Assembly (NCBI GenBank): GCA_035293765.1
Contig: DATGMF010000079.1
Location: 1 to 64,000, forward strand
DNA: 64,000 bases
Reading direction: 5' to 3'
From: Ktedonosporobacter sp.
GTDB taxonomy: Bacteria > Chloroflexota > Ktedonobacteria > Ktedonobacterales > Ktedonobacteraceae
A program made the translations under genes and the position numbers. Of this stretch, positions 2,224 to 62,751 are shown piece after piece (position 1 is the stretch's first letter; each line of letters opens with the position of its first letter). The notes below the pieces were generated by a model. That model was not told the origin of the DNA and searched no databases. It worked only from the letters and a program-made list of their open reading frames with translations.

Positions 2224-2347
2224 TAAAACAGACGCAGACACCATTACCGACGTTACTCTGTTTTTTATATCACCCTCGTTGTAGTGTCTCAATAAAGGAG
2301 CCGCGTTATGTGATTGCCTGCACATAATGCGGCTCCTTTATTTGCCA

Positions 2348-36860: not shown

Positions 36861-37421
36861 TTGCAATCTAACCTGCGCAACCTACTGTATAAGTTGCGTA
36901 AGGCCCTGCCCGTGATTGATCACTTTCTCATTTTGCAAGAGGAGGAACAGGACCTTTCCGCGGCTATCGAGACTGCTCAACGGTTGCTGCGTTCCGACCC
37001 GCTTCAAGAGACAGCTTATAGCCATTTGATGCGCCTCTACGTAGCGCATGGGGACCGAGCTGCTGCGCTGCGTACCTATCACGCGTGTACCACTGTACTG
37101 GAACGCGAACTGAGTGTTGCGCCTGGCGTGGTAATCCGAGAGAGCTACGCGCGTTTGCTCCAGGCAGAAAAACGAGTAGCTCCTCCAAGAACTACACCGT
37201 CTACCAGGTTGAAAGGGAGAGCCCCTCTGGTCGGGCGCGAGTCGGAGTGGGCCCGGCTTCGGGTGTCCTGGCAACGTACACTGGCTGGTCGCTCGCACAT
37301 GGTCCTGCTCATCGGAGAAGCCGGCATGGGTAAAACCTATCTGGTCGAGGAACTGCAAGCCTGGGTGGAGCGGCAAGGGATAGCCACTGCTAGGCAATGG
37401 TGCATCTTTGAGCAAGCATAG
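36861..37421 (+). pseudogene. fragment of a SARP/AfsR-type regulator (BTAD domain + start of P-loop NTPase), lacking DNA-binding and C-terminal domains
   Basis: BTAD: AIETAQRLLRSDPLQETAYSHLMRLYVAHGDRAAALRTYHACTTVLERELSVAPG. P-loop: LVGRESEWARLRVSWQRTLAGRSHMVLLIGEAGMGKTYLVEEL. No wHTH upstream. The ORF stops after 186 aa, then the frame shifts into 37408-37902. Confidence 0.6.
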
Positions 37422-38463: not shown

Positions 38464-38728
38464 TACATTTCAAACCGCTTGCAATACTCGTGGTGGCATT
38501 CCTTCGGCAGGCTATTTATAGGAGACCGAGGGACTGCCTTCGATAAACTCCAAGCTTTGTGCTCCTTCCCTGGTCGCGACGGCTCACGTCTTGATATTCA
38601 TCGCTGCTTCCCTGCTCAAAAGTCCGAAGGGCTTGCTAACAAAGGCTGGAACATGTACAGTAAGGGTGCCATCTGGCAAATAACTCATCCAACCATAACA
38701 GGAAATGCATGGACTGTGGAGGAGAGGC

Positions 38729-40036
38729 ATGTCGAAAAAATCAAAGCGAGCAAAGAGGCAGGCACAATCATCAAGGCCAGGAATACCATTACCACAACGA
38801 GTATCGATACCTTTGCGGATGTACGAGCGTGTTGAGTATGCCAGACAGCAGATGTTTATGGGCGACTTTGTGGGCTGCATTCGTACCTGCGAGCCGCTCC
38901 TTGCTCCCCTGCCCAAACGGAGCCATGAACGTCTGGAGGTTCTCATGCTGTTGGGACTGGCTCATGGGATGTTGCAACAGTACCAGCAAAGCTATGATAT
39001 TTTCAGTGAGGCGATTGCTCTCGAACCCACCTTTGCAGAGTCATGGTATAACCGTGGTCTGGCCTGTCACTATCTGGCCCGTCCCGGTGAGGCTGTGCAG
39101 AATTTTGAGCGTGCAGTTGAGCTTTCAAAAGACGAGCCGGGTGAAATGGCTCGCAAATTCGCGCTGCAGTTAGAGGAAGGTCGGCGGGAACTGCAAGAGG
39201 CGATGCTGGCGCATGGAACGGACATCACGTTCGAACAATACCTGGAGAGGGAGGAGTGGTTCACTCAGGCACTGCGTCTGGTGAAGCAAGAACAATGGCA
39301 TGAGGCCGAAGGGCTGTTCCGACAACTCACCGAGATGGGGAGCCGCATCCCCTCGTATTGGGGGAACCTGGGAGTTTGCTTGCTGATGCAATTGCGCTAT
39401 GAAGAGGCAGAAGCAGCGCTCAAACAAGCCCTTGCCGTTGATCCTGACTATTCCATTGCACGGGACAACTTGAAGAAGCTGCCGGAGCTCCGGCGCTCAA
39501 AGAGGCCTGTTGGGCATAAGTTGATCAACCCCCATCGAGAGGCGGAGGCGAAACAATCGCTTACGCTGTATGAGAAAGATAGCGAGGGGGAAGTGATCGC
39601 CTCCACCGTGATCGAGAAGGTTGGGCACGCTGTGACAAGCAGTGGGAGACGGCTTGGGAAACAACCCCCACGCTACGATTTTCTGCTGAACCCGTACCCG
39701 GATCTCCGTTTTACCACCTGTCCACGGTGTCAGGGTAAAACGCACCTGCGCAAGTTCTCCCTGGTGGTGCATGTGAACCCCGATCATACAGCCATCCTGG
39801 ACAAACGATGCCGTTTCTGCGACGCCTGTGATCTGCTGATGGTTCATCAGCGTCAACTAGAAGGGCAGCTTACCACCGAGTGTATGGTCAGCAATCCGAA
39901 GGTCATTGGCAATAACTATCAAGTGGTGGGGACGCTCGATAGAGCGAAGTGGGACCAGGGGAAGCAAGCCACAGTATCTTTTGAGCATCTGAGAGAGCAC
40001 CTCCACGATTTTAAAGAGGTTGTCACGTTGCAGTGA
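38729..40036 (+). CDS. TPR-repeat protein with C-terminal CxxC...CxxC zinc-ribbon
   Basis: Multiple TPR-like A..W.N.G......G...EA...F..A..L.P units (AESWYNRGLACHYLARPGEAVQNFERAVEL; SYWGNLGVCLLMQLRYEEAEAALKQALAVDPDY). C-terminal CPRCQGK...CRFCDAC. Start at the MSKKSK Met with RBS ggagga. Confidence 0.6.
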   Translation: MSKKSKRAKRQAQSSRPGIPLPQRVSIPLRMYERVEYARQQMFMGDFVGCIRTCEPLLAPLPKRSHERLEVLMLLGLAHGMLQQYQQSYDIFSEAIALEPTFAESWYNRGLACHYLARPGEAVQNFERAVELSKDEPGEMARKFALQLEEGRRELQEAMLAHGTDITFEQYLEREEWFTQALRLVKQEQWHEAEGLFRQLTEMGSRIPSYWGNLGVCLLMQLRYEEAEAALKQALAVDPDYSIARDNLKKLPELRRSKRPVGHKLINPHREAEAKQSLTLYEKDSEGEVIASTVIEKVGHAVTSSGRRLGKQPPRYDFLLNPYPDLRFTTCPRCQGKTHLRKFSLVVHVNPDHTAILDKRCRFCDACDLLMVHQRQLEGQLTTECMVSNPKVIGNNYQVVGTLDRAKWDQGKQATVSFEHLREHLHDFKEVVTLQ

Positions 40037-41151: not shown

Positions 41152-41520
41152 ATGGCCCGCATTGCTAAAGATGACACACGAGAAAAACGGATTCATAACG
41201 AGATTATTGTCGATGCCTATGGGCCTGAAGAGCAAGCTGCTGCCTGGTATACGGTACTTGATGATACCCTGCACTTCCCCTTTACGGCAAAGTGTATCGC
41301 AGTCCGGGCGATATCACCCCTGGAACTGGGAGAAGAAGTCGAAGTCGTGGGGATGGCTCCCGATGCGGAATGTGAGCATGACATGTTGGTGCTCATTGTC
41401 TGGAAACAGCGTCGGTTTGCTGTTCCCTTGAGCCAGTTAGAGGGGCTTGATCTTGATCCAGAAACTCGACAGGTCATCGAAGATTGGCATTATTGGGTGA
41501 AAAGAGGCTATACCTTGTAA
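41152..41520 (+). CDS. CcbP-like (cyanobacterial Ca2+-binding protein family) small acidic protein
   Basis: REKRIHNEIIVDAYGPEEQAAAWYTVLDDTLHFPFTAKCIAVRAISPLELGEEVEVVGMAPDAECEHDMLV follows the CcbP pattern (IVDAY..EEQA.GWY..L.D.L.FPF.AKC). RBS ggagga. Confidence 0.5.
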   Translation: MARIAKDDTREKRIHNEIIVDAYGPEEQAAAWYTVLDDTLHFPFTAKCIAVRAISPLELGEEVEVVGMAPDAECEHDMLVLIVWKQRRFAVPLSQLEGLDLDPETRQVIEDWHYWVKRGYTL

Positions 41521-42144
41521 ATGACGTATGACCAAATCATGGAGGCATTACAGCAAGAGGCCAGCCCTCAAGCAGTCGAAGGGATGGCCAGATTTGGCAT
41601 CAGAGGGACCCAGGTATTAGGCATTTCGATCCCTGTCCTGCGAAAGATAGCAAAAGCTGTGGGAAAGGATCACCAGCTCGCCTTGCAACTCTGGGACTCT
41701 GGTCTGCATGAGGCAAGGATTCTCGCCTCGATGGTAGCTGAGCCGCAACGCATGAGCGAGCAACAGATAGAGGCGTGGGTGAGTACCTTTGACTCGTGGG
41801 ATATCTGCGATCAGGTGTGTGGGAATCTGTTCGATAAAACGCCTTTTGCGTACCAAAAAGCCTGTGAGTGGTGTCAGCGAGAGCCTGAGTTTGTGCGCCG
41901 AGCGGGCTTTGTGATGATGGCAGAACTGGCCGTTCATGACAAAACCGCACCAGATGAAGCCTTTCTGCCATTTTTTCCCCTCATCAAACAATATGCGACC
42001 GATGAGCGTAATTTTGTGAAAAAAGCCGTCAACTGGGCGCTGCGCCAGATCGGAAAGCGCAATGCTCATCTGCGACAGTATGCATTGCAGTGGGCAGAAG
42101 AGATGAAAGTAGCCGCGCGTCTGCTGGAAGAAGTTGGTCAGTAG
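41521..42144 (+). CDS. DNA alkylation repair protein (AlkD/AlkC HEAT-like-repeat glycosylase family)
   Basis: ARFGIRGTQVLGISIPVLRKIAKAVGKDHQLALQLWDSGLHEARILASMV...WDICDQVC..LFDK matches the DNA_alkylation family. The ATG follows the ccbP-like stop directly. Confidence 0.75.
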   Translation: MTYDQIMEALQQEASPQAVEGMARFGIRGTQVLGISIPVLRKIAKAVGKDHQLALQLWDSGLHEARILASMVAEPQRMSEQQIEAWVSTFDSWDICDQVCGNLFDKTPFAYQKACEWCQREPEFVRRAGFVMMAELAVHDKTAPDEAFLPFFPLIKQYATDERNFVKKAVNWALRQIGKRNAHLRQYALQWAEEMKVAARLLEEVGQ

Positions 42145-42609
42145 CCGCGCCTGTTCCTCGCTATAGTGCTGCGGGATCTTGAGCCGGGTGAGCAGGTCGG
42201 GGGTGATAGGTTCGGGCAGGTGCGATGGTTCTGGTGGCTTTGGGGCCAGAAACTGTTCCCACTGCCTCTGCGACCGGTTCGTCTTCTGCTCCGGAGGAAT
42301 TTCAGGATCGAAGCCGCCGAGAAACTCCACGTCGAAATCGTCGTCGTAGGTATCTTCTTTGCGCTTCTTGATGGAGAGCAGGCTGACGTAGGGGGCTTGA
42401 AAGGTGTAAAAGATGCGATAGTCGCCGCAGCGGATGCGATGCAAACGTGGATCGATATATTTTAGCTGCTTTTTGGTTTTCGCGTCCGGCGTGGGATCTT
42501 CTGTGAGCAGATTGATCTTGTCGAGAATATGCAGCACCTCTTTTGGCGGCAGCGCCAACCATTCAGCGGTAAAACTGGGCTTCATAGAGATGGTCCATTG
42601 CTTGCTCAT
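42145..42609 (-). CDS. RelE/ParE-superfamily toxin-domain protein with C-terminal extension; 3' end undefined (possible pseudogene)
   Basis: LHILDKINLLTEDPTP..KQLKYIDPRLHRIRCGDYRIFYTFQAPYVSLLSIKKRKEDTY is a clear RelE/ParE motif. The ORF has no stop and continues antisense through alkD to 41617, so the distal part is probably artefactual. Confidence 0.4.
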
Positions 42610-42903
42610 ACATCGACCCTTTCCAAACAGACCTTCTGGCACCTATTGTGTCGATCAGGATGATTGGTCAATCCCTCCATAAAATTTTTACATGAAAAGC
42701 GTTTCATTTGCAATATAACATGTTATACTCATTCTCTGTTTTGCGTTGTCTGTATATTTTTTTATTCCAACTGCTATCTATCTACTCCAACGCTTTTCAA
42801 CGTATACCTACTGCTTTTATGCTTATCCTATCTATTTTTACAATTAAATAGTACAAATGTTTTATTAGAACTTATGTATCATATATAACATCAATACTTA
42901 TCT

Positions 42904-42933
42904 ATTGACAAGTAGATCGATAAATACCTACAA
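42904..42933 (+). promoter_or_regulatory. consensus sigma70-like promoter inside a ~300-bp AT-rich spacer, oriented toward the defence operon
   Basis: TTGACA (42904-42909), 18-nt spacer, TACAAT (42928-42933); 135 nt upstream of the GTG start at 43068. The surrounding 42650-42960 is ~25-30% GC in a >60% GC genome. Confidence 0.45.
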
Positions 42934-43067
42934 TATATAAAAACCTCCTTTAATCGTAATTGCCTCTCTCATTCGTTCTACTCGCCAAGAGCGTGGTATT
43001 GTATAACGAAGGTGAAGCAGGTCCTGCTCAGCCTCCATGAGGCTGAGTTTCTAGAAGGTGGAAGTGT

Positions 43068-48265
<5,198 letters not shown>

Positions 48266-48266
<1 letters not shown>

Positions 48267-51235
48267 TGAATTTTACTGTTGGCTCGCTGGTCAAAGCACG
48301 CGGACGCGAGTGGGTCGTCCTGCCGGAATCCGATGATCAGGTGTTGGTCCTGCGCCCGCTGGGAGGGAGCGAGCAGGAAGTGACCGGCATTTATCGCGGC
48401 CTGGAGGAGGTGGAGGCGGCTTCGTTTGCCCTGCCCGATCCGCAGGCGCTGGGCGATTATCGTTCGTGTCGCCTGTTGCGAGACGCGGTCCGCCTGGGCT
48501 TTCGGACCAGCGCCGGTCCTTTCCGCTCGTTCTCCCATATCGGGGTAGAGCCGCGCCCCTACCAGTTTGTGCCGCTGCTGCTGGCCCTCAAGCTCGATCC
48601 GGTGCGCCTGTTGATCGCCGATGACGTGGGCATTGGCAAAACCGTCGAAGCCTGCCTGATTGGTCGCGAACTGCTGGATCGCGGCGAGATCGAGCGCATG
48701 GCAGTGCTCTGTCCGCCGCACCTGGCCGAACAGTGGCAGGTGGAACTGCGCGAGAAATTTCATATCGAGGCGGTGCTGGTGCTGGCGAGTACGGCGACAC
48801 AGCTTCAACGGACCTGCCGCTTTGACGAGTCGATTTTCGAGCGCTATCCCTTTGTGATCGTCTCAACCGATTTCATCAAAGCCGACCGCAGGCGCGACGA
48901 ATTCCTGCGCACCTGCCCCGAATTCGTGATCGTGGACGAGGCGCATACCTGCACGGATGCCGGCGCTGGACGCGGACGCCAGCAGCGCTACGATCTGGTG
49001 GCAAGTCTGGCTGCTCATGCTGAACGGCATCTGGTGCTGGTCACGGCCACGCCCCATAGCGGCAACGAAGCGGCCTTCCGCTCGCTACTCAGCCTGCTCA
49101 AGCCAGAGTTCGCGGCCCTGCCCGAAGATTTGACCGGCCAGCAGCATGAACGCGAGCGGCGCACGCTGGCGGCCCATTTTGTGCAGCGGCGACGCGCTGA
49201 TATCACCGCCTATCTTCACACCAATACTCCCTTCCCTGACCGCAAGGAGAGCGAGCAGCACTACACGCTCACCCCCGCGTACCGGCGGCTCTTTGAGCGC
49301 GTGTTGCACTACGCCCGCGAGACGATTAGCGATCCGGCGGATGGCAACAGGCATCGCCAGCGGGTGCGCTGGTGGTCGGCCCTGGCCTTGCTCCGCTCCC
49401 TGGCCTCCAGTCCGGCGGCGGCGGCTGCCACCCTGCGCAATCGCGCCAGCACGGCTGATACTTCCGACGAAGCTGAGGCCGACCGGATCGGACGCCATAC
49501 GGTGATGGATCTGCTGGACAACGAGTCGAGCGAAGGGGTCGATATTGTGCCGGGCAGCGATTACGAGGAGCAGCAGGCGGGCGAGTCAAGTTTGCGCAAG
49601 CGTTTGCAGGCGATGGCTCGTGAGGCCGAGGCGCTCAAAGGCGCGCAGGATGCCAAACTGTTGCAGGCGGTGAAGATCGTCAACGACCTGCTCAAAGATG
49701 GCTTTCAGCCGATCCTCTTCTGCCGCTTTATTCCCACGGCTGAATATGTGGCGCAGGAGCTGAGTACGCGCCTGCCAAAAGATATCCAGGTCGAGGCGGT
49801 GACGGGCCTGCTGCCGCCGGTGGAGCGCGAAAACCGCATCCTGCAACTGGCGGAGCAGCCCAGGCGCGTGCTTGTTTGCACCGATTGCTTGAGCGAGGGC
49901 ATCAACCTGCAAGAGCATTTTAACGCGGTCATCCACTACGATCTTTCATGGAACCCCACGCGCCATGAACAGCGCGAAGGGCGGGTGGACCGCTATGGTC
50001 AGGCCAGCCCCCAGGTGCGCGTGGTGACGTACTACGGCCACGATAATCCAGTTGATGGCATTGTGCTGGAAGTCCTGATCAAAAAGCATCATACCATTCG
50101 CACCTCGCTGGGTATCTCGGTGCCGGTACCGGTCAATAGCGAGCAGGTGCTGGAAGCGATCTTGGAGGGCGCATTGCTGCGCGGCCATAGTAGCTCGCCT
50201 TCCAGCCTGCAAATGACCCTGCCGGGCCTGGAAGACCCGCGCGAGGAGCAGTTCTGGTTGCAATGGGAGGCCAACGCGGCCCGCGAGAAGCGTTCGCGTA
50301 CCATGTTCGCCCAGGAGAGCATTAAGCCCGACGAGGTTGCGGCGGAACTGGCGGCCATGCGCTCGGCGATGGGGTCCGCTATCGACGTCGAGCACTTTAT
50401 CCGCGATGCGTTGAGCGAATACGGTGCTGCCGTCTCGCCGCTCAACAATGGTGCGCTCCAGGTGGATTACAGCACCATGCGGGGTCCGCAACCAGCACAG
50501 AGCGTACACGAGGCTCGCGGCTTGAAAGAGACCCTTCAGGCGGTACTGCGCCACGATCAGAAGGACAGGCGTTTCAGGGCGCGCTTCGAACTGCCTGTTC
50601 GTGAGGGAGAATTGTATTTGAGCCGCACGCACCCGCTGGTCGAGAGCGTGGCGGCGTACGTGATGGATGCCGCGCTCGATTCGACGACTGGCAGCGAGAG
50701 CATCGCCAAACGCTGCGGTGTGATGCGCACCAGCCAGGTTGAGCGGCGCACCACTCTGCTGCTGCTCCGCCTGCGCTACCATATCGTGACCACGCAGCGC
50801 GGACAGGCTGAACGGACGCTGCTGGCCGAGGATTGCCAGGTGCTGGCCTTCCAGGGTTCACCCATGAGTGCCCGCTGGCTTGACGATAAAACCCTGGTCG
50901 AACGCCTGCTTGAGGCGCGGCCCGATGGCAATATCTATGAAGATCAGGCGCGGCAATTTCTGTGCCAGTTGCTTGCAGAGATCGAGCATGTGCAGCCATA
51001 TCTGACCGAGATAGCCGAGCAGCGAGCGCAGGAACTCGCGACCGCGCATCGCCGTGTGCGCCAGGCCGCCCAGGCGCGCGGCCTGCAATACCGCGTCGAG
51101 CCGCAAATGCCGGTTGACATCCTGGGCATCTATCTCTATTTGCCCAAGATCGCGTCAACCCCACAAGGCAAGAGCGAAGCACCGTCGTATCGACCTGATT
51201 ATGAGCATGAACGACCAAGATCGGCAAGGTCGTAG
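48266..51235 (+). CDS. SNF2-family helicase/ATPase (DrmD-like), translationally coupled to upstream gene (TGATG overlap)
   Basis: SNF2_N: RPYQFVPLLLALKLDPVRLLIADDVGIGKTVEA; DEAH box FVIVDEAHTC. Helicase_C: VLVCTDCLSEGINLQEHFNAVIHYDLSWNPTRHEQREGRVDRYGQ. Confidence 0.85.
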
Positions 51236-51389
51236 GGACCCGATTATATCGCGTCCGATTTATCGCCCGTCCCCGTTGGCGACCGGTCGGCAGCGAGCAG
51301 AAGTCGAAAAAGGAACGGGTTCGACAAGGGGAAAGGAGAGGCGATGGCGAGGGGGAGCGCTGAAGCGGACGCGATATAATCGGGTCGCT
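51236..51389. repeat. intergenic element with 27-bp near-perfect inverted repeats flanking ~108 nt (MITE-like or large RNA stem) between SNF2 and methyltransferase genes
   Basis: cgtagGgacccgattatatcgcgtccg (51232-51258) vs the reverse complement of 51367-51393 (cgtagCgacccgattatatcgcgtccg); 1 mismatch. Confidence 0.6.
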
Positions 51390-51469
51390 ACGAAGGCCCA
51401 AGGTCGCGTCGTTCCCAACCCATTGGCGTTCATCATCTTACATCACAACCTGGAAAAGGAAAAGTAGTC

Positions 51470-54400
51470 ATGGTAGCATACCAGAAGCGACAGCAAACCA
51501 TCTTCTCGACCATCCATAGCGAGGGGGCGATCCTGCCGATGGACCTGCTGCAACGCATCAGCGACCCGCAGAACGCCCAGCTTGAGGGTCTGACCCCCGA
51601 CGCCTATCACCTCGAAACGATCAAGCTGAACGAGGCGATTAACCGCGCGTGGACCAGCCTGCTGGGCGTCTGGCAGCGGTTCCGGCATGAACAGAAGCGG
51701 TTGACGGAGCACGAGAGTGGGACGACGCTGACACGCGAACGCTGGCTGCTGCCATTATTTCAAGAACTGGGCTATGGTCGCCTGCAAACGAAATCCCCCC
51801 TGGTGGTGAGCGAGCGCAGCTACGCGATCTCGCACGGCTGGGAAGGCACGCCGATTCACCTCGTGAGCTACAAGGTGGCGCTGGACCATAGCGTACACTT
51901 TGAGAGTGGCGCGCGGCGTAGCAGCCCTCACAGCCTGCTACAAGAACTACTCAACCGTTCAAAAGAGCATCTGTGGGGCATCGTCTCCAACGGGCTGCGC
52001 TTGCGTCTGCTGCGCAATAATGTGAGCCTGACGCGCCAGGCGTATGTCGAGTTTGATCTGGAGGCGATGTTCAACAACGAGGTCTATGCCGATTTTGTGC
52101 TGCTCTGGCTGCTGTGCCATCAATCGCGGATGGAGGGGGAGCGCCCGGCGGATTGCTGGCTGGAGAAGTGGTCGCAGGAGGCTCATACGACCGGGACGCG
52201 CGTGCTCGAAGATCTGCGCGAGAACGTCGAACACGCCATCAAGGAACTGGGCAGCGGCTTTCTGACCCACCCGGCCAACGGCCAGTTGCGCGAGCAACTG
52301 AGTACGGGGACGCTGAGCGCGATGGATTACTACAAGCAGCTCCTGCGTATCGTGTACCGCCTGCTGGTGCTCTTCGTGGCCGAGGATCGCGGCATCCTCT
52401 TCGACCCAGCCGCGCCCCAGTCCGCCCGCGAGCTGTACACCCGCTATTACTCGACGATGAAGTTGCGCTTCCAGGCTGACCGGCAACTGGGGACGCGCCA
52501 CAGCGACCTGTACTATGGCCTCAAGCTGGTGATGGAGAAGCTGGGCCAGGAGCGCGGCTGCCCGGAGCTGGGTCTGCCCGCGCTCAACGGCTTTCTCTTC
52601 TCGCCCAGAGCGGTCAGCGATCTTCAGGAGTGCCAGCTCGCCAACTATGCCCTGCTGGCGGCGGTGCGTCACCTGGCCTATACCGAACGCGGGCGCACAC
52701 GGCGCATCATCGATTACAAAAACCTGGGCTCCGAAGAACTGGGCAGCGTCTACGAATCGCTGCTGGAGCTGCACCCGGTCTTCCATCTCGATACCGGTAC
52801 ATTCGAGCTTGCCAGCGCCAGCGGCAACGAGCGCAAGACCAGCGGCAGCTACTACACTCCCACCAGCCTGATCACCTGCCTGCTCGACTCGGCCCTCGAT
52901 CCCGTGCTGGACGAAGCGGCGAACAAGCCCAATGCCGAAGCTGCCATTCTCAGCCTCAAAGTCTGCGATCCCGCCTGTGGCAGCGGTCACTTCCTGGTTG
53001 CCGCCGCGCATCGCATCGCCAAACGGCTGGCCGCCGTGCGCACCGGAGACGAGGAGCCAGCGCCGGAAGCGCGCCGCCACGCCCTGCGCGATGTCGTCGG
53101 ACGCTGTATCTACGGCGTGGACATGAACCCGATGGCGGTGGAACTGTGCAAGGTCAGCCTGTGGATGGAGGCTATCGAGCCAGGCAAGCCGTTCTCCTTC
53201 CTCGATGCCCACATCCAATGCGGCAATAGCCTGCTGGGCGCGACTCCGGCCCTGCTCAAAGCGGGCATCCCTGACGCGGCCTTTGAGCCGATAGAGGGCG
53301 ATGATAAGAAGGTCTGTGGGGAATTTAAGAAGCTGAACAGACAGCAGCGCGAGGGCAACGTCAGCCTCTTCCGCGAGGACCGCGGCGAGCCGATCTGGGA
53401 GCAGCAAGGGACGCTGCTGCATTCGATGCTGGAAGTTGAAGCGATGCCCGACGACAACTTCGCGCACATTCACCGCAAAGATGCCTCCTTTGACAAACTG
53501 CGCAAGTCGGAAATCTACCAGAACGCCCTGCTGTGGGCCAACGCCTGGTGCGCCGCCTTCGTCTGGAAGAAGACCGCCGAGATGCGCCCGCCGATCACCG
53601 ACGAAGAGTTCCGCGACATCGGCAAAAATCCCTTCACGCTCCCGGGCTGGCGCAAAGCCGAAATCAAGCGGCTGGCCGCGCAATACCAGTTCTTCCACTG
53701 GCACCTCGCCTTCCCCGACGTCTTCCGCGTCCCTCCCCGAGGTAAGCCGCCCGAGAGCGAGCAGGCAGACTGGTCCGGCGGCTTCGATGTGGTGCTGGGG
53801 AATCCGCCGTGGGAACGCATCAAACTTCAAGAGAAAGAGTGGTTTGCCAGTCGCCAACCGGAGATCGCCAATGCCGCCAACGCCGCCCTGCGCCGCAAAA
53901 AGATCGCGGCCCTGAAGGACGAAAATCCCGCGCTGTTCCAGGCATTTATGGACGACCAGCGCAAAGCCACCGGCGAAAGCCATATCGTGCGCGATAGTGG
54001 CCGCTACCCCCTCTGTGGTCGCGGCGATGTCAATACCTACTCGATTTTCGCTGAGAACATGCGAACAATCATCTCTTCTCAAGGGCGCGTGGGATGTATT
54101 GTGCCTTCAGGAGTGGCAACGGATGATACAACAAAGGTTTTCTTTCAAGATTTGATGCAATCCAGGTCTTTGCTTTCACTATATGATTTTGAGAATCGAG
54201 ATGCTATCTTTTCTGGAGTTCATCGAAGCTATAAATTTTGCCTGTTAACCTTAACTGGTTCGGCTCGCCCTGCCTCTCGTGGAGCAGAATTCTTCTTCTT
54301 CGCTCATGATACTGCCGATTTGCAAGAGAAAGAGCGGCGTTTTGTTCTCTCGGCCCGCGATATTGAGTTGCTGAACCCGAACACGCGCACTTGCCCGATC

Positions 54401-55468
54401 TTCCGTACAAAGAGAGATATGACAATCACAAAATCTGTCTATTCTCGTGTACCAGTGCTGATTAAGGAAGGCTCAACAGGGTATAACGTGTGGAACGTTT
54501 CCTTTGCCTCAATGTTTCATATGACAAATGACTCCCACCTTTTCCAGATGCGTGAGCAGCTAGAGAACGAGGGCTGGAGGCTGGTTGGCAATGCTTTCCA
54601 GAAGGATGGGGAAGTGTGCCTGCCTTTATACGAGGGCAAGATGATTTCACATTTTGACCATCGCTTTGCCGCTTATGGTGAGGAACAGGGAGACCATGAA
54701 AGTATAGCGGGTGCCGCGCAAAATGCTGACCCTCACAAGCTCAATCTGCCGCGCTACTGGGTGCATGCATCCCACATGCCGACTCTAACACAGCGCAGAA
54801 AGGTATTGCTGGCTTTTCGGAGCATTGCTCGCTCTACAGATATACGCACAATCATATCTAGTATTGTCCCCAATACTCCTTGTGGCAATAGCTTAATCGT
54901 CGCTTTAATTAATGAGCACAGCTCAAAACTGCTGTTTCTGCCTGTTTCTATCTCATCATTTGTGTTTGATTATATTGCGAGACAAAAGACTGGCGGAGCC
55001 AATTTAAACTTTTTCATCCTCAAGCAACTCCCCGTTCCTCCACCCGATACCTACAAAGCCGCGTGTGGGTGGGATCACCAACATACTATCGGCGAATGGA
55101 TAGTGCCGCGAGCGATGGAACTCACGTACACCGCCTGGGACCTCGCGGCGTTCGCCAGAGATTGCGGCTATGATGGGCCGCCTTTCAGGTGGGATGAGGC
55201 GCGGCGCTTCCTGCTGCGCTGCGAGCTGGACGCGGCGTACTTTCACCTGTATGGGATTGAGCGGGAGGATGTGGACTATATTATGGACACGTTCCCCATT
55301 GTCAAGCGCGGGGATGAGAAGCAACACGGGGAGTATCGCACGAAGCGGGTGATTCTGGAGATGTATGATGAGATGCGGCGGGCGATGGAGACGGGGGAGG
55401 CGTATCGGACGCGGCTGGTGCCAGAACCGGCAGGTGCGGGGGTGCGGCATGAGGGGAAGAACGAGTAG
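51470..55468 (+). CDS. large gamma-class N6-adenine DNA methyltransferase (DrmMI / PglX / type IIG-IIL family) with N-terminal unassigned domain and C-terminal TRD
   Basis: Motif I VCDPACGSGHFLVAAAHRI (~52966). Motif IV VVLGNPPWERIK (~53800). Motif order I then IV means gamma class; 1332 aa. The ~54080-55010 portion is markedly AT-richer than the rest of the gene. Confidence 0.85.
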   Translation: MVAYQKRQQTIFSTIHSEGAILPMDLLQRISDPQNAQLEGLTPDAYHLETIKLNEAINRAWTSLLGVWQRFRHEQKRLTEHESGTTLTRERWLLPLFQELGYGRLQTKSPLVVSERSYAISHGWEGTPIHLVSYKVALDHSVHFESGARRSSPHSLLQELLNRSKEHLWGIVSNGLRLRLLRNNVSLTRQAYVEFDLEAMFNNEVYADFVLLWLLCHQSRMEGERPADCWLEKWSQEAHTTGTRVLEDLRENVEHAIKELGSGFLTHPANGQLREQLSTGTLSAMDYYKQLLRIVYRLLVLFVAEDRGILFDPAAPQSARELYTRYYSTMKLRFQADRQLGTRHSDLYYGLKLVMEKLGQERGCPELGLPALNGFLFSPRAVSDLQECQLANYALLAAVRHLAYTERGRTRRIIDYKNLGSEELGSVYESLLELHPVFHLDTGTFELASASGNERKTSGSYYTPTSLITCLLDSALDPVLDEAANKPNAEAAILSLKVCDPACGSGHFLVAAAHRIAKRLAAVRTGDEEPAPEARRHALRDVVGRCIYGVDMNPMAVELCKVSLWMEAIEPGKPFSFLDAHIQCGNSLLGATPALLKAGIPDAAFEPIEGDDKKVCGEFKKLNRQQREGNVSLFREDRGEPIWEQQGTLLHSMLEVEAMPDDNFAHIHRKDASFDKLRKSEIYQNALLWANAWCAAFVWKKTAEMRPPITDEEFRDIGKNPFTLPGWRKAEIKRLAAQYQFFHWHLAFPDVFRVPPRGKPPESEQADWSGGFDVVLGNPPWERIKLQEKEWFASRQPEIANAANAALRRKKIAALKDENPALFQAFMDDQRKATGESHIVRDSGRYPLCGRGDVNTYSIFAENMRTIISSQGRVGCIVPSGVATDDTTKVFFQDLMQSRSLLSLYDFENRDAIFSGVHRSYKFCLLTLTGSARPASRGAEFFFFAHDTADLQEKERRFVLSARDIELLNPNTRTCPIFRTKRDMTITKSVYSRVPVLIKEGSTGYNVWNVSFASMFHMTNDSHLFQMREQLENEGWRLVGNAFQKDGEVCLPLYEGKMISHFDHRFAAYGEEQGDHESIAGAAQNADPHKLNLPRYWVHASHMPTLTQRRKVLLAFRSIARSTDIRTIISSIVPNTPCGNSLIVALINEHSSKLLFLPVSISSFVFDYIARQKTGGANLNFFILKQLPVPPPDTYKAACGWDHQHTIGEWIVPRAMELTYTAWDLAAFARDCGYDGPPFRWDEARRFLLRCELDAAYFHLYGIEREDVDYIMDTFPIVKRGDEKQHGEYRTKRVILEMYDEMRRAMETGEAYRTRLVPEPAGAGVRHEGKNE

Positions 55469-55564
55469 CAGTCTTTTTAGAAGGCGATGATGTGGGCATT
55501 CCCTCTGTGGCTGCTGTGATAGTCAGAGTATAATAGATGTGTCTATGGTAGAAAGGGATTGTGT

Positions 55565-58198
55565 ATGGCAACTCAGGGATCGCTAACCCGCGAAGGGATG
55601 CTTGCGGGAATGCAGCAGGCTCTTGATGAAGAGATCGCAGAAAAGATCGCCAGACCGAATATTAAGCATAGTGCCGTGGACGGCAAACTCGTTTCTGTAG
55701 GCAACGGCCAGTATATTTACCAGTTTACTTTGCTCGAACCCTGGACGCCCGACGATGATACGTCGCTCTCCATTGTGAACGCAGAAGCAAAAAGTATCAA
55801 GTGTAGCGTCGTTACCTCGACCGGCACCTTGCTGACCATCGCTTCAGATCAAGCATTGCCTCCAGCTCAGCTGAGCCAGATCAATCTGAGCGACGACTCG
55901 ACTGAACTCCTCAAGCGCCAGAAGGAAGCTTTGAAACATGTCGAGGAAGGGAAAAATCAGCTTGCCTCGAAATGCTTTGGCCTGATCGCGTATCGGTATA
56001 TAACCGCTGCGAGCGACAAACGCTTTGGAAAGTGGAAGCTGCGTAACAACCAATATATGGCGGCACAGAGGACCCTGGGCGGTGAGATCGCTTTTATTGT
56101 CGGCCCTCCTGGCACTGGCAAGACCCTGACGCTGGCCGCTATCGCCGCGCATAACAATATCGCCATCGATAATGCGATCATGAAGCCCTGTGAGTTGTGC
56201 AAAAGCGCGGGCAGGCCGGATCTGCTCAGAGATGGGCAGGTTGTGCGCTTTGGTGCAGTGCAAAAAGCCGAACTCAAAGATAATGCCGAGTACGCGGAAG
56301 TCTATCTGCCCAAAATCGCTCACTCCCTGGGCGTTGCGACCCAGGAGCGCCAGAAGGCCGTTAAAGCTGAATTGGATCAGATCACGCAAAAGCTGACAAG
56401 CATACTGCAACAGCGGCGAGGGAGCAGCGGACCATTAGAGCAGCAATTGAGCGAAATAACTGCTCAAATCGCGCGCTGGAATCAGGAACTGGCTCCCCTG
56501 GAGCAGGAAGGGCAGCGCCATATTGCCTCCCTGCAAGCTCAGCAGAAGCAATATACAGCAAACCACGGCCGCCTGCAACGGGAGGCTACTCAAGCCGGAC
56601 AGCAGCTTGCCAGGGCGAAAGCGCAAGAGGAGGAGCGGAAACGCGAACTTGAGCACTGGAAGCAACAGAAGCAGCAGACAGTGACACGGCTGGTTGAAGC
56701 GCGAGCGATGAGCGGTATCAAGCGTCTCTTCAAAGGTCCCAGCCTGAAGGCGCTGGAAGACCAGGTCGCGCAATGCAGCCATAAAGTCTATGTAACCCGG
56801 CAAGCACTGGATGCCCTTCAACCAGAAGTGAAGCGCGTGCAAAAGGCGTTTTCCCAGCACACGCAAGAGTTGGAGATGAGCGAGCAACAGTTAAAGGCCA
56901 TCCTGGAACAGTTACATACACCCACCGAACGAGCGCAACGAATAGCAGAGCTGAGGGAGCAGAAAGCTTATGCAGGGCAGCGAACCACCAGCATCCAGGC
57001 AACATTGAAGCAAAAGAAAGCAGGCGCTGCTGCGGAGACGCAAGCTTTGCAGGCTCAAAAGAACCGCCTGGAGACAGCGTTGGCGGAGCTGGATCAGCAA
57101 TTGCGAGACATCGAGAAGAGCATCGTCGAGAAGGCCCTGGTTGTTGGCACAACGCTCACCAAAACCTACATGAATCAAGCCGTTGCGAGCAGGCGTTTTG
57201 ATGCCGTCATTCTCGATGAGGTCTCGATGGCACCTATGCCGCTTGTCTATCTGGCAGCTACTCACGCCGAACGCTCCGTAACCCTCATTGGCGATCCACG
57301 GCAGCTCGCACCAACAGTCTCATCTGACAAGCCAGCGGCTCGGCAGTGGTTGGGCAAAGATATTTTCGATCTCAGAGGAATTTCTTTAGAAGCTGCCGAT
57401 CAACTTTTCCAGCATAGCATCTTGCTGAATGTGCAATCACGTATGCACCCTGACATTTCGCGTATAGCGAGGGAACTGATCTACGACGATAAATTGCATG
57501 ACGATCCAACATTGCCAAAAGAGGCGCAACCGCTGTTCCCACTGCCCACATCCCCGCTGGTGCTCTGTGATACGCAAGACGCTTCCCCGCTTGCAACACG
57601 ACCCTCTCGTGGGCGATCATGGAAAAATTACTATCATGCGCTCTGCTGCATCACTCTGGCGCGTAAGATGCTAGAGGAGCACTCCGATCTCAAGAAAAAA
57701 AGAAACGAACCGGCTATCGGCATTGTCACGCCTTATCGTGCGCAGGCGCAACTATTACAAAGCCTCTTGAAGGATGCTGGATTGCAAACCCATGTACAGG
57801 CGGGGACGATACACCGTTTCCAGGGCCTGGAATTTGAGATCATCCTATTTGATACGGTTGCCTCTACTGGCTCCCATGCGAGCGAGTTTATTGCTGGCGG
57901 CCATGGCTCAAATTCGATGCGCCTCTTGAATGTCGCGGTCACGCGTGCGAAACAAAAACTCGTCATCGTTGCTAATCCAGGCTTTATCCAGGAACAGTTC
58001 CAGGAGAGTCCCATCATGCACCAGGTTGTACTGATGGCTGCAGGAACTGCTACTATTCCCTCGCTCAATGTGGCGGGCACGTCATTCTCCTCTCTTGTCG
58101 CGAAAGCACGTCGTGCGCATCCAGAAGTCACTGCTCCAGAGGTGATCCTGGCTCTACTCGATATGAAATTTACGGCGCGTAAAGCGAGACCCATATAG
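55565..58198 (+). CDS. Upf1/DNA2-like SF1B helicase (AAA_11/AAA_12) with ~290-aa coiled-coil insertion between Walker A and Walker B
   Basis: Walker A FIVGPPGTGKTLT. Long Q/E/K/R/A-rich heptad region (~aa 230-520). Walker B VILDEVSMAP, III LIGDPRQLAPTV, IV VQSRMHPDISR, V IGIVTPYRAQAQ, VI LNVAVTRAKQKLVIV. ATG at 55565 with RBS gaaaggga; the track used an upstream TTG. Confidence 0.8.
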   Translation: MATQGSLTREGMLAGMQQALDEEIAEKIARPNIKHSAVDGKLVSVGNGQYIYQFTLLEPWTPDDDTSLSIVNAEAKSIKCSVVTSTGTLLTIASDQALPPAQLSQINLSDDSTELLKRQKEALKHVEEGKNQLASKCFGLIAYRYITAASDKRFGKWKLRNNQYMAAQRTLGGEIAFIVGPPGTGKTLTLAAIAAHNNIAIDNAIMKPCELCKSAGRPDLLRDGQVVRFGAVQKAELKDNAEYAEVYLPKIAHSLGVATQERQKAVKAELDQITQKLTSILQQRRGSSGPLEQQLSEITAQIARWNQELAPLEQEGQRHIASLQAQQKQYTANHGRLQREATQAGQQLARAKAQEEERKRELEHWKQQKQQTVTRLVEARAMSGIKRLFKGPSLKALEDQVAQCSHKVYVTRQALDALQPEVKRVQKAFSQHTQELEMSEQQLKAILEQLHTPTERAQRIAELREQKAYAGQRTTSIQATLKQKKAGAAAETQALQAQKNRLETALAELDQQLRDIEKSIVEKALVVGTTLTKTYMNQAVASRRFDAVILDEVSMAPMPLVYLAATHAERSVTLIGDPRQLAPTVSSDKPAARQWLGKDIFDLRGISLEAADQLFQHSILLNVQSRMHPDISRIARELIYDDKLHDDPTLPKEAQPLFPLPTSPLVLCDTQDASPLATRPSRGRSWKNYYHALCCITLARKMLEEHSDLKKKRNEPAIGIVTPYRAQAQLLQSLLKDAGLQTHVQAGTIHRFQGLEFEIILFDTVASTGSHASEFIAGGHGSNSMRLLNVAVTRAKQKLVIVANPGFIQEQFQESPIMHQVVLMAAGTATIPSLNVAGTSFSSLVAKARRAHPEVTAPEVILALLDMKFTARKARPI

Positions 58199-58672
58199 AT
58201 ACCGGTTCAGCTTGTCTGTTCTGTCAATAATAATCTGTCGACTGATAGATATCATGCCTTGCAAACAGCAAAGATGCCTCTGGCACCCTGTAATTGCGCA
58301 CCTATGTGTGATGAGCAGGGGATGTACGACCTGGCGATGGAAGCGGCTTTTCAGGAGAGAGATGCAAGTAATATATATTGAAGTGCATAAAAGTTCTATT
58401 TTGACCTGTTTTCCTCAGGGTTTCTCAAAAGTCCCACGAGTAGCGCAACGAGGAGGTAGCAGAGTTTGTGCAGGCTGATGAGAGGTGACAAGTGGCCTAA
58501 GGAGAATGTTGCACTCCTGAGAGGTGGAGCAGCAGCGCAAGAGCAACCGAAATGAGCATCAGATGAACGAAAAAGCGGAGAAGCTAGGGAAAGAAGCCAT
58601 GAGGGGCCACTCGGCACAGAAGGCTGAGCCGAGGAAGGGAACCCGCAAGGCCCTGGAAGGCTGGTTAGTGGG

Positions 58673-59745
58673 CTATGAGTCCCAGAAAGGCTGCGCACTG
58701 AGCTCTCCATCAGGGGGCAGATGCAGCCGAGCCTGGACGAGGGGGTGATCGAGCACGGTGTAGTCCTTGCCCCGTGTCACAAACCCGTAGCCTGCCAGAT
58801 CCGAGAGGACGGCTCCCGTGCCATACGCTCCATCCAGGCGCAGGAGGGCCTGCCCTCCTGGGAAGCGGTGCGCAGCAAGATAGGCGCTGATGGCCTCGAC
58901 CGCACGACGCACTTCCTCGCGATACCGCCCGTTCCCACGGTTGCCGAAACTGCCGAGCCACTGATGGCTGTGGGCCTGCAAGACAGTCGTGCGGGTACGC
59001 ACCACCTCACCCCGTTTGCGTCCGGTGTAGCCAGGGGCACACACCTCAGTCAGGCGACGCTGCGGCTCTGGAAGATGATCTCCACCGGGCAAGGCGCGTT
59101 GGCGGGCCGCCTCACGGGTCCCGTCGATGTCGAAGACCCTCCATTGCTGCCCCTGCCGATCCCAGAGTCCGGCGACCTCGGCGTCTGCACCCAGAGATCG
59201 GACCAACAGATCGGCCAGAAACAGGGTACGCAAGGTTTCGATCACTGGCGCTGTCAGAGCCGCCAACGCCCGCGAGAGAGCCGAACGAGAGGGCAGCTGC
59301 TCCCGTCCAAAGAGCGCCATAAAGGGCTGTCCCCAGGGCCGCAGAACCTCGTAGAATCTCTCTAGGGTAGGCTCGGCACTGACAGCGTAGCCAAAGAGCA
59401 CGACGAGAAAGTCGATCAGCTCATCGTGTCCACAGCGTCGTCGCTCAAAGCGCATGCTTTCGGCGCTGGGTCAGGATGCCCTGCTGCCGAAGATGCTGCG
59501 ACAGAAGTACGAGTTCGCCCCACCAGGGCGGCGGACAGGGCAGAGCGTCGGCAGACGTTTGGATCATCACCGATCCGTCGGCGATACTATTCATATGCTC
59601 CTCCTTGATGGGAAAACATTGATTCTTCTCCATCAGGGAGGCATATTCTTTGGCTGGCTGGCTAGCTGTCAGCTCGTTGCGCTACTCGTGGGAAAGGGGA
59701 TGCTCTGGTGTGGTACGCTTTTTCTTAGGTACAGACATAGTTCCC
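58673..59745 (-). mobile_element. degraded IS element: DDE transposase (IS4/IS701-like) split over >=3 frames and C-terminally truncated
   Basis: ORF 58673-59455 (260 aa; ...WRVFDIDGTREAARQRALPGG...). Upstream N-terminal piece 59445-59633 in another frame. 18-codon stub MSVPKKKRTTPEHPLSHE with RBS aaggaggg at ~59744. A full IS4-type transposase would be >400 aa. Confidence 0.55.
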
Positions 59746-60032
59746 TCCTTATGGGGATGTGAAGTCGGTACATGCGCTGTTCCAAATGAACAGCCTATGC
59801 CTGTAGTATCATCTCTGAAGTGCTTTGTTTACTACTTCCCCTCTACACATAACTCGAAATGGCATCTACTTGGGCAGATTTTTCCGATGCTGATGAAATC
59901 GAGCGAGTTATTAACGTATTGTCCATAATCTGAGCAGATATTGTCTAGAATCTGGTCAGAGCTTGTCTATCTCATATAAATATACTTCTACCAGATAACC
60001 AAGGAAGTTGCTAACCGTTGAGAGGAGGTCAA

Positions 60033-60212
60033 ATGATGAACTGTATCAAGCGTTATCTGGCTCCCCTAATATTTCTAGCGGTCCTTATCTGGAACAGGTA
60101 TTTAGTGAGTTCCATTGTATTTAGAGGTATGCTGGTGAGTCTGGTATTGATGATAGTGATTTATGTAACGTCTGGTACAGTAGATGGCCCAGGGCCTCCT
60201 CCATGGCCATAA
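60033..60212 (+). CDS. small two-TM membrane protein (59 aa)
   Basis: Strong RBS gagaggaggt 6 nt before ATGATG. MMNCIKRYLAPLIFLAVLIWNRYLVSSIVFRGMLVSLVLMIVIYVTSG... ends with a PGPPPWP tail. Confidence 0.4.
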   Translation: MMNCIKRYLAPLIFLAVLIWNRYLVSSIVFRGMLVSLVLMIVIYVTSGTVDGPGPPPWP

Positions 60213-60247
60213 ACATACTGATGTAGCACGGGAGGAAAGAAAGTTTT

Positions 60248-60469
60248 ATGTCTTGGAAAATTATCAACCGCATTCTCGGTCTGGCAACTATCGATCAAGA
60301 TTTTGCTCAAAAACTGTTAACCGATCCATTACCCGCAATTCAGGACAAAGGTTTTCAACTTACGAATAGGGAACGAGAGGTTTTCAGTGAAATCTCTGCA
60401 AGTACGCTCAATGAACTCAGCCAACAGCTCATGCAAAAGCTGAGTCATGACGATGTTGATCGGAGTTGA
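60248..60469 (+). CDS. small soluble protein (73 aa) with NHLP/Nif11-leader-like N-terminus; function unknown
   Basis: RBS gggaggaaag. ...IDQDFAQKLLTDPLPAIQDKGFQLTNREREVF... resembles the W.D..F...LL.DP..A....G..L leader pattern. It lacks a GG site or a Cys-rich core. Confidence 0.35.
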   Translation: MSWKIINRILGLATIDQDFAQKLLTDPLPAIQDKGFQLTNREREVFSEISASTLNELSQQLMQKLSHDDVDRS

Positions 60470-60497
60470 AATATAGGTGTGATTATAAGGAGGTAAG

Positions 60498-61481
60498 ATG
60501 AAGCAATCTCTCGCTCCGCTACGGGTGTACCTGTTCGGCCACTTCTCTGCCGAACGTGGTGGGCATGTCATCGCGGGCTTGGAGCCACGACGCCTGCAAG
60601 AGCTCTTTAGCTATCTCCTCCTCAACCGTCATCGCCGCTGTTCTCGTGAACTACTGGCAAGCCTTTTCTGGGGAGAGAGTTCTACAGAGCAAGCAAAGAG
60701 AAATTTGCGCCAGGTGCTATGGCAACTGCAGACAGCGCTAGAGGCAGAAATATCCACAGATACAGCATCTATTCTTACTATTACCGCCGACTGGTTACAG
60801 GTCAATCCGAACGCTGAGCTCTGGCTGGATGTAGATTGCTTTGAACAAGCCTGGAATAAAACCAGATATATCTCTGGAAAAGATTTAGATGCTTCGCAGG
60901 CACAATTGCTACGGAACGCTATCGGGCTGCATCAGGAGGTATTATTACTCGGCAATTACGAGAATTGGTGTCTCCGCGAGCGTGAACGGCTACGCGAGTG
61001 CTCTGTAGAGATGCTAGACAAATTGATGGAGTATAGTGAGTTCCACCATGATTACGAGGCCGCTCTAAGCGCCGGTTCTCGCATTCTGGACTACGACCGT
61101 GCCCACGAGGCTACTTATCAACACATTATGCGTCTCTACTACTTTTTAGGTCAAAGGGTGGAGGCACTCAAGCAGTATCAGCGCTGTAAAGCCGCTCTTC
61201 TGGAAGAATTGGGAGCCTTGCCCAGTAGAAGCACCCGTACTCTCTATCAGCACATCTTTCTGGAGCAAATGGAGGTCGAGACGGATGGGAAGGGGATGAC
61301 CGAGTATGTACAGCAGGAAACACCTCTGCTTGCACATATCTTGCATGAATTGCAACAAGTTCAAGCCATTCAAGCCAATGCGCAACGACAGGTGGACTTT
61401 CATATTCGCAAAATCGAGCAGGCTCTCCAGACATTTGTGGGAGCCTCAAAAGAGCCGATAACCAGTAAGCTCACTTTGTAA
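60498..61481 (+). CDS. SARP-family transcriptional activator (OmpR-type winged helix + BTAD)
   Basis: LRVYLFGHFSAERGGHVIAGLEPRRLQELFSYLLLNRHRRCSRELLASLFWGESSTEQAKRNLRQVLWQLQ is the SARP DNA-binding domain. BTAD: ...ATYQHIMRLYYFLGQRVEALKQYQRCKAALLEELGALPS. RBS aaggaggt. Confidence 0.8.
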   Translation: MKQSLAPLRVYLFGHFSAERGGHVIAGLEPRRLQELFSYLLLNRHRRCSRELLASLFWGESSTEQAKRNLRQVLWQLQTALEAEISTDTASILTITADWLQVNPNAELWLDVDCFEQAWNKTRYISGKDLDASQAQLLRNAIGLHQEVLLLGNYENWCLRERERLRECSVEMLDKLMEYSEFHHDYEAALSAGSRILDYDRAHEATYQHIMRLYYFLGQRVEALKQYQRCKAALLEELGALPSRSTRTLYQHIFLEQMEVETDGKGMTEYVQQETPLLAHILHELQQVQAIQANAQRQVDFHIRKIEQALQTFVGASKEPITSKLTL

Positions 61482-61674
61482 AAGTTGGAGTTTAGAGTGG
61501 GTCGTATCGTTACCCTTTTTCCGACCCGCTCTAAACTCCAATAAAAGAAAAAGTGTAGGACGAGAAATTGGCTGTAAAAAGACGCCGTCAAAGATAGTTA
61601 GTTAACGCCCTGGCAGACAGCCCTGCGCTATCATCATAGTAACACCGTGTGCCGATATATAAGGAGTTGATAGC

Positions 61675-62631
61675 GTGTCCTTCTTTTCAGTTCAACTGAG
61701 GCAGTTGCGTAAATCACTCTTTGGAATCGCGTTGGAAGAGACAACATTTGCCAAGCGAGGATTTTACAGAGGGGATTCAGATGCGCAATACAGGTTGGAG
61801 CAGATCGGGGCAACCTTCGTCCAGGGATATCATGCAGCGCTCGAAGATGATTGCTTTGAAGTCCTGGTACCTTCCCTTCAAAACCTTGAAGCCGAGTTAC
61901 AGGGTTTCGCTTTTGAAGGAGCTGCGATGGGACTCGCTCTGCTCGACTACTTTCTGCCTCCAAAACAACGCCTGATCTCTTTTATGCAAGGACCAGGGAA
62001 AAACCACATTTACATGTTGCATGTCGGAGCTGGCTGGACGCTTGGAAGGCTTCCCAGGAGCGCCCGCAGGCTGATGCGACAGTTCGATCCACTGCTGTGC
62101 TGGTTAGTTCTGGACGGTTACGGGTTCCATCAAGGCTTTTTCTCCTGGCGTCACTTTATCGATAACCAGGCTCTTCCAGCGCGTCTTTCTGGCGATGCTC
62201 TCCATGTTTTTGATCAGGGACTGGGCCGAAGCCTCTGGTTTGTGAGAGGGGCCGATGTTGCTCAAGTTAGCTCCACCATTGATGCGTTTCCTGCAGAACG
62301 TAGGGGCGATCTCTGGAGCGGAATCGGACTGGCTTGTGCATATGCAGGCGGAACTGAACGGGGTGCGATAGAGGCGCTCTGTAACGCGGCAGGAAAAGAT
62401 CGATGGCACCTTGCGCAAGGGGCAGCCTTCGCGGCGAAAGCCCGGCAAAGAGCAGGGAATCCAGCGCCGCATACTGATCTTGCCTGCAAGGTTTTCAGCG
62501 GTCGCTCAAGTGACGAGGCGACAAGACTGACAGATGAATGCTTGAACGATTTACCCCCGGGTGAGCAGGCTTACGCGCTCTGGCGTCTACGATTGCGAAC
62601 GCAACTGGCCCAGCAGGATGAACGCGTTTAG
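61675..62631 (+). CDS. conserved hypothetical protein immediately upstream of the PKS (possibly enediyne-cassette UnbL/DUF1702-like; unverified)
   Basis: 318-aa soluble protein. The UnbL/DUF1702 assignment rests on genomic context only; I could not match a motif from memory. Confidence 0.4.
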   Translation: MSFFSVQLRQLRKSLFGIALEETTFAKRGFYRGDSDAQYRLEQIGATFVQGYHAALEDDCFEVLVPSLQNLEAELQGFAFEGAAMGLALLDYFLPPKQRLISFMQGPGKNHIYMLHVGAGWTLGRLPRSARRLMRQFDPLLCWLVLDGYGFHQGFFSWRHFIDNQALPARLSGDALHVFDQGLGRSLWFVRGADVAQVSSTIDAFPAERRGDLWSGIGLACAYAGGTERGAIEALCNAAGKDRWHLAQGAAFAAKARQRAGNPAPHTDLACKVFSGRSSDEATRLTDECLNDLPPGEQAYALWRLRLRTQLAQQDERV

Positions 62632-62751
62632 CAAGCTCTTTCAGCTTGTTTCCTTCTGCGCGAAGGGCCTGTATCAACGAAACTGGCTGGCGAGATATGT
62701 TCCCGGCTATAAAAGTAACTCTCCAACCCACAATGATGAGGAGAAGTAATT

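Follow-up and report, generated by a model that had tools for sequence, protein, structure and literature searches.

A probable divergent promoter region in the AT-rich spacer of an ARMADA type I-like defence module from a Ktedonobacteraceae genome

[quoted passage not shown] The window analyzed here is a 64-kb stretch of DNA that is identical to a contig of the metagenome-assembled genome GCA_037025245.1, and the nearest named relatives of its genes belong to Ktedonobacteraceae and Ktedonobacteria. It contains a plus-strand operon resembling ARMADA type I and, transcribed in the opposite direction, a remnant of an ArmD-like gene, with an AT-rich spacer between them. We consider, with a probability of about 0.8, that the AT-rich tract serves as a divergent control region within this ARMADA type I-like defence module and that the module was acquired horizontally by a Ktedonobacteraceae genome.

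The first gene of the operon (43068–48266, plus strand) was assigned to a YprA-like DEAD/DEAH helicase of 1732 aa (ArmC-like), with matches to DEAD (1e-25), Helicase_C (4e-13) and MZB/DUF1998 (MZB, 1.4e-10) and, at residues 1669–1713 near the C-terminus, to DUF559 (22.7 bits against a cut-off of 20.6), which we take to be a Vsr-type nuclease. The second gene (48266–51235, plus strand) encodes a SNF2/RapA-like helicase (DrmD/DpdE/BrxHII-like, ArmA-like) with SNF2-rel_dom and Helicase_C domains and matches to DrmD, DpdE and BrxH models; those to the DpdE and DrmD models are full-length, with all NCBIfam DrmD and DpdE scores lying under the curated cut-offs. The third (51470–55468, plus strand) encodes an N6-adenine DNA methyltransferase (Eco57I/DrmMI/PglX-like, ArmB-like) with Eco57I/N6_Mtase domains, DrmMI matches and weak PglX matches. 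Downstream of it lies a gene for an SF1 helicase with AAA_11/AAA_12 domains (MkoA-like; 55559–58198, plus strand), a putative member of the operon. Within the methylase gene, whose GC content is otherwise 0.62, a block of low GC (0.44–0.52) was found at 53950–55100 and may be an exchanged target-recognition region. The central part of the SF1 helicase (about residues 260–520) gave weak matches to SMC-type coiled coils.

[quoted passage not shown] Unlike in the published system, the ArmD-like gene of the window is divergent and decayed, not the last gene of the operon, and the methylase gene is followed by that for the unrelated SF1 helicase, which is absent from the published core. By gene content and order the operon appears to be ARMADA type I-like. 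Similarities to other systems were also found. DISARM class 1 and Druantia are related to the locus by SNF2 (DrmD-like) and N6-adenine methylase (DrmMI-like) partners and by a DUF1998 helicase that resembles a fusion of DrmA and DrmB and has its best PADLOC matches to DruE models. In contrast to these systems, the window has neither a separate DrmB nor the PLD nuclease DrmC, and its nuclease is of the Vsr type.

The gene on the other side of the spacer (42160–42609, minus strand, ATG at 42609) has an intact frame and encodes a RelE/ParE-like N-terminal domain plus the linker of an ArmD-like (RelE-UvrD helicase) protein. In its homologues the linker connects the domain to a UvrD-type helicase bearing a Walker A motif, and these RelE-UvrD genes are clustered with SNF2, MmeI/Eco57I-type methylase and MZB genes. 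Alignment with one of them, at locus L093, indicates that the loss of about 790 bp from within the gene fused the RelE part (42626–42163) to a 56-bp piece of the UvrD helicase (42101–42156, minus strand), and that homology ends at 42101. The helicase part of this gene has been lost in both the window (42101–42609) and locus L092 (1795–2334), with different breakpoints. Compared with L092 over 150 codons, the RelE-like part gave a dN/dS of 0.12, a sign of purifying selection, which suggests that the remnant is expressed now or was until recently; a stand-alone RelE-like protein may have been retained by selection. An ORF of 341 codons continuing past the UvrD remnant was rejected as not credible, as it runs antisense through the well-supported alkD gene (see below).

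The divergent intergenic spacer between this remnant and the helicase gene is 458 bp long (42610–43067) and has a GC content of 0.354, with an AT-rich core (42714–42904) of 0.267. In the initial annotation some 300 bp of this region were described as having about 25–30% GC, and the quantitative profile bears this out: 42650–42960, with a GC of 0.286, is the lowest-GC stretch of the whole window. The minimum is 0.20 for 100-bp segments (at 42815) and 0.277 for 300-bp segments, as compared with a mean of 0.552 (sd 0.059) for the 300-bp segments of the window. From about 0.49 at 42600 the profile falls to 0.23–0.24 around 42800–42950 and recovers to 0.48 by 42950–43050. No 200-bp stretch below 0.36 occurs elsewhere in the window, and its remaining non-coding gaps range from 0.39 to 0.54. 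The host genome had also been taken to exceed 60% GC, which was wrong: the background is about 54% (0.543 for 1–42100 and 0.529 for 55500–64000), and it is the operon alone (43068–53900) that reaches 0.621. The equivalent spacers in L092, L093 and closer relatives are likewise AT-rich relative to their own coding DNA; with values of 0.42 (L092) and 0.37 (L093) against 0.27–0.35 for the window, the tract studied here is the more extreme, and neutral drift alone does not explain its extra AT-richness.

A near-consensus promoter, here called P1, had been proposed within the tract, and it was recovered as TTGACA (-35, 42905–42910), an 18-nt spacer and TACAAT (-10, 42929–42934), matching the consensus at 11 of 12 positions; the initial annotation had the site right and its coordinates (42904–42933) one base too low. 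P1 was scored against the sigma-70 consensus, with the sigma preferences of Ktedonobacteria assumed to be sigma-70-like. It was the one site found in a consensus scan of 42000–43600, and only 5 sites matching at 11 or more of 12 positions exist on both strands of the window. Transcription from P1 is predicted to start near 42941 on the plus strand. The GTG at 43068, likewise proposed before, is backed as the start codon of the helicase gene by a Shine-Dalgarno sequence, AAGGTGG, six bases upstream and by orthologues that start with MNTIFDF at the same place; together with the predicted transcription start it would give the mRNA a 5' untranslated region of about 127 nt. As in housekeeping (sigma-70/sigma-A) divergent promoter regions, P1 combines a consensus -35, a -10 matching at 5 of 6 positions, AT-rich surroundings, a spacer within 16–18 nt, a leadered mRNA and a promoter-like element on the opposite strand about 190 bp away. 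It differs from such promoters in that its spacer is one nucleotide over the optimum and its transcription start is a predicted one.

Conservation was examined in loci fetched from reference genomes and metagenomes by homology to the 1732-aa helicase, with one more obtained via the upstream gene. The P1 element is kept in about 14 loci (the window, L008, L009, L010, L012, L092 and L013–L020). Among the five closest ones (L008, L009, L010, L012 and L092), in which the helicase shows 79–82% protein identity, the hexamers and their spacing (TTGACAA-N16-CTACAAT) are identical in L008 (Ktedonobacteria bacterium brp13), L009, L012 and L092, and the -10 of L010 reads TAGAAT (CTAGAAT). In the next clade (L013–L020; 66–70% identity), whose leaders cannot be aligned with those of the first, TTGACA is found with TAGAAT in L013–L018 (66–70% protein identity) and near variants occur in L019 and L020. 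Relative to the start codon the element lies at -155 to -390 for the set of loci as a whole, and in L013–L020 it precedes the codon by 85–250 nt. Among the remaining, more distant loci a relaxed pattern was matched in only 4, and viral contigs searched for the promoter pattern gave 47 chance promoters, none of which had the leader.

Upstream of about -45 the loci are unrelated in sequence. For L012 and L008, homology to the window begins just some 10 bp upstream of the -35; immediately beyond the conserved promoter on this side, L012 carries an ISL3-type transposase gene (1396–2631, minus strand) and L008 a tyrosine-recombinase-like (integrase) fragment (4873–5415, minus strand). Between the window and L092, dS is about 0.76 for each flanking gene, and the spacer is unrecognisable apart from the promoter. 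Since neutral DNA would be unalignable at such a dS, the retained promoter represents a phylogenetic footprint. The presence of the same promoter in about 14 loci, with the DNA further upstream unalignable, argues that it is the operon's own promoter, and the earlier proposal that it is aimed at the defence operon is borne out by its conserved position and sequence at the orthologous loci. P1 is thus very probably a genuine promoter belonging to the operon, judging from these sequence comparisons.

On the minus strand of the spacer a consensus scan gave no strong site. Alignment of the window with L092 and L093 revealed a candidate promoter, P2, consisting of a -35 TTGCAA (42713–42708), a 17-nt spacer and TG-TAAAAA(T) (42692–42684), with the counterparts TTGCCA-17-TAAAAT in L092 and TTGTAA-17-TAAAAT in L093. 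P2 sits in the best-conserved block shared by the spacers of the window and L093. Its match to the consensus is poor (8–9 of 12) and the alignment comprises three sequences; whether TTGCAA-17-TAAAAA(T) would serve as the divergent promoter of the armD-like gene is a matter of about even odds. Taken together, these elements suggest the following arrangement. A promoter for a housekeeping sigma factor (TTGACA-18-TACAAT, 42905–42934) would start, on the plus strand at about 42941, an mRNA with a 127-nt 5' untranslated region followed by the YprA helicase-nuclease, SNF2 helicase, methylase and SF1 helicase genes; on the minus strand, the weaker TTGCAA-17-TAAAAAT (42713–42684) would probably drive the ArmD-like RelE-UvrD remnant; and the approximately 190 bp between the two promoters would be an unconstrained AT-rich spacer. 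The feature is, on this evidence, an ordinary AT-rich divergent promoter region in a defence module whose type was named only recently. For work on the expression or regulation of an ARMADA type I-like system from Chloroflexota, it offers a promoter and leader that are native and well supported; it opens no new question.

AT-rich tracts frequently flank genomic islands, and the tract had been read as an island boundary. With its sharp AT-richness next to DNA of non-host composition and the GC step from about 0.54 to about 0.62 across it, it does resemble a junction scar that separates host DNA on the left from a horizontally acquired island on the right. Comparison with related genomes, however, places the break elsewhere. 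To the left of the armD-like remnant lies alkD (41521–42144, plus strand; DNA_alkylation, E = 7e-41), encoding a DNA alkylation repair protein that is truncated at its 3' end: the window AlkD has 207 aa, as compared with 219–230 aa in homologues, and its last residues are unaligned. The island remnant supplies the last 12 or so codons, which lie on the strand opposite to the 56-bp UvrD fragment. In the sister genome GCA_037025425.1 (locus L095), which has an intact AlkD of 228 aa, homology extends over 41392–42107 only (83.5% identity). As homology ends at 42107 on the host side and at 42101 on the island side, the real left boundary of the island is at 42101–42108, about 550 bp to the left of the tract, where it cuts the host alkD gene.

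Several further observations speak against a junction within the tract. The gene to its left is itself of the defence-island type (the ArmD-like RelE-UvrD remnant), and L092 keeps the same divergent pair together, with nucleotide identities of 82.5% for the RelE-like remnant and 82.1% for the helicase and a spacer of 517 bp as compared with 458 bp. In addition, two blocks of the window spacer are collinear with the one that precedes the RelE-UvrD gene of L093, namely 42686–42759 (P = 0.017 against shuffles) and 42881–42911, the latter spanning the -35 and its flank. Unlike known island junctions, the tract has no att-like repeat (direct repeats of this kind were at chance level), no tRNA and no integrase; the tRNA/tmRNA scan of the whole window was negative, the ORFs inspected from 35.7 to 62.6 kb included no integrase, and the tract has neither tandem or significant direct repeats nor another copy in the window or the fetched loci. 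We therefore regard a junction scar as very unlikely: the AT-rich dip and GC step that look like an island edge belong here to a promoter spacer flanked by two island genes, and the tract appears from its alignments to be an inherited part of the module. As L095 is not a clean empty site, the event at 42101–42108 could have been a deletion or rearrangement and not the original insertion. To the right of the operon no match to L095 was found and synteny does not resume; with homology confined to 41392–42107, the comparison with L095 gives no right end for the island.

The promoter match itself might be a chance product of AT-rich sequence, with the operon being transcribed from elsewhere. AT-rich DNA readily yields -10-like hexamers, and a loose scan showed no excess of promoter-like sites over shuffles (1 found and 1.9 expected). 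The match of 11/12, however, was obtained by chance with P = 0.03 in dinucleotide shuffles of a 455-bp spacer stretch and, as the stronger argument, about 14 orthologous loci keep the element in the same position amid diverged surroundings, which makes a fortuitous match extremely improbable. Instead of being an ordinary promoter spacer, the AT-rich DNA might also act as a regulatory platform, curved or bound by a silencer, that represses both promoters until relieved, as in xenogeneic silencing. Like the targets of H-NS, Lsr2, MvaT and Rok, the tract is sharply AT-rich beside compositionally different DNA (0.29 as compared with 0.55 for the window); equivalent spacers in L092, L093 and closer relatives are AT-rich too, and that of the window is more extreme than theirs. 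On the other hand, the approximately 190 bp between the promoters have diverged past alignment in the relatives, promoters normally lie in AT-rich intergenic DNA, promoter-like sites are no denser than in the shuffles, and we know of no xenogeneic silencer for Chloroflexota. A silencing role of the tract is accordingly rather unlikely.

The predicted 5' leader (42941–43067, plus strand, about 127 nt), with a CCTCC box at 42944–42948 and the Shine-Dalgarno sequence at 43055–43061, could likewise be a cis-regulatory RNA that gates a toxic helicase-nuclease by means of an attenuator hairpin with a U-run or of anti-Shine-Dalgarno pairing. The leader is conserved in 5 loci (nhmmer E values of 1e-30 to 1e-38); about 110 nt are alignable in 4 of the 5 closest loci, and in L092 conservation is limited to the promoter and a short stretch close to the ribosome-binding site. 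The second clade (clade B) has a set of conserved leader blocks of its own, and most orthologous leaders share a CCTC box near +10. The minimum free energy of the window leader, -42.7 kcal/mol (z = -2.95), is lower than those of all 200 shuffles, and in this fold the 5' CCUCCUUU is paired with the Shine-Dalgarno sequence. Moreover, a stable hairpin with a perfect 10-bp stem (GCTCAGCCTC-CAT-GAGGCTGAGT, 43026–43048, plus strand, -16.6 kcal/mol), followed by TTTCT (UUUCU in the RNA), ends 7 nt before the Shine-Dalgarno sequence. Against a regulatory RNA, i) only a 4-bp core of the hairpin is kept in relatives and it was not called in a terminator scan; ii) RNAalifold gave consensus energies of only -2.7 and -0.7 kcal/mol and averaged pair probabilities a single 3-bp helix, with the six alignable sequences giving these structure tests low power; iii) anti-Shine-Dalgarno pairing by the 5' CCUC box was rejected, cognate duplexes being no better than non-cognate ones (P = 0.70); iv) no Rfam match was found in 40–46 kb at E <= 1; and v) in L009 (5760–5980) and L010 (850–1050) about 220 nt are inserted into the leader, separating the conserved blocks TGCTCA and TGAGTT. 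The leader is thus conserved in sequence, a regulatory role for it is not supported, and we consider such an RNA improbable. Should the leader nevertheless contain a control element, the CCUC box near +10 and the hairpin plus U-run before the ribosome-binding site could be candidate parts of it. Less probable still is the combined proposal that the leader (about 110–127 nt) is a new cis-acting element silencing the ARMADA helicase-nuclease operon, at the level of translation or of transcription, until a signal arrives and that the RelE-like domain has been kept as a stand-alone protein following loss of the helicase in two lineages. The divergent promoter region thus remains the preferred reading of the tract.

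Short direct repeats had also been noted in the tract; these proved to be at chance level. Tandem Repeats Finder detected no repeats there, and the repeat search returned only two-copy families of 9–13 nt. An interpretation of these repeats as decayed tandem copies of the promoter was dropped, as the promoter unit aligned locally to the rest of the tract with a top score of 18, no better than in shuffles (17.2 ± 2.5; P = 0.40). The sole support for a promoter duplication is that the 13-nt ATGCTTATCCTAT (42819–42831) is identical to the -35 flank of L093 and that the window exceeds L093 by about 80 bp between the conserved spacer blocks. This word and the 11-nt ATTTTTACAAT, both in mid-tract (42819–42844), are exact matches to pieces of the two promoter flanks of L093, where the counterparts lie on the reverse strand at about 215–329. 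These matches and the extra length could reflect an old internal duplication, a possibility without statistical support.

The motif CTATCTAT occurs in 4 copies on one strand within 130 bp, and similar words cluster at 42774–42905. It was dropped as a repeated element, as its excess over the whole window is modest (49 matches, as compared with 29 ± 5.5 expected) and it is not repeated upstream of the relatives' promoter, where only the copy abutting the -35 (TCTATTGACA) is kept. A mobile element or MITE was likewise dropped, since neither the window nor the roughly 140 loci fetched contain a second copy of the tract. The small ORFs of the tract and leader had no Pfam match, and the leader ORF keeps neither its frame nor its start codon in relatives. 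Around the island, the following were also observed: 36861–37421 encodes a SARP-type regulator fragment (the C-terminal half of BTAD and the start of AAA_16), 38705–40036 a TPR protein, and 60498–61481 a complete Trans_reg_C+BTAD protein. They may represent parts of AfsR-like regulator genes that have been rearranged.
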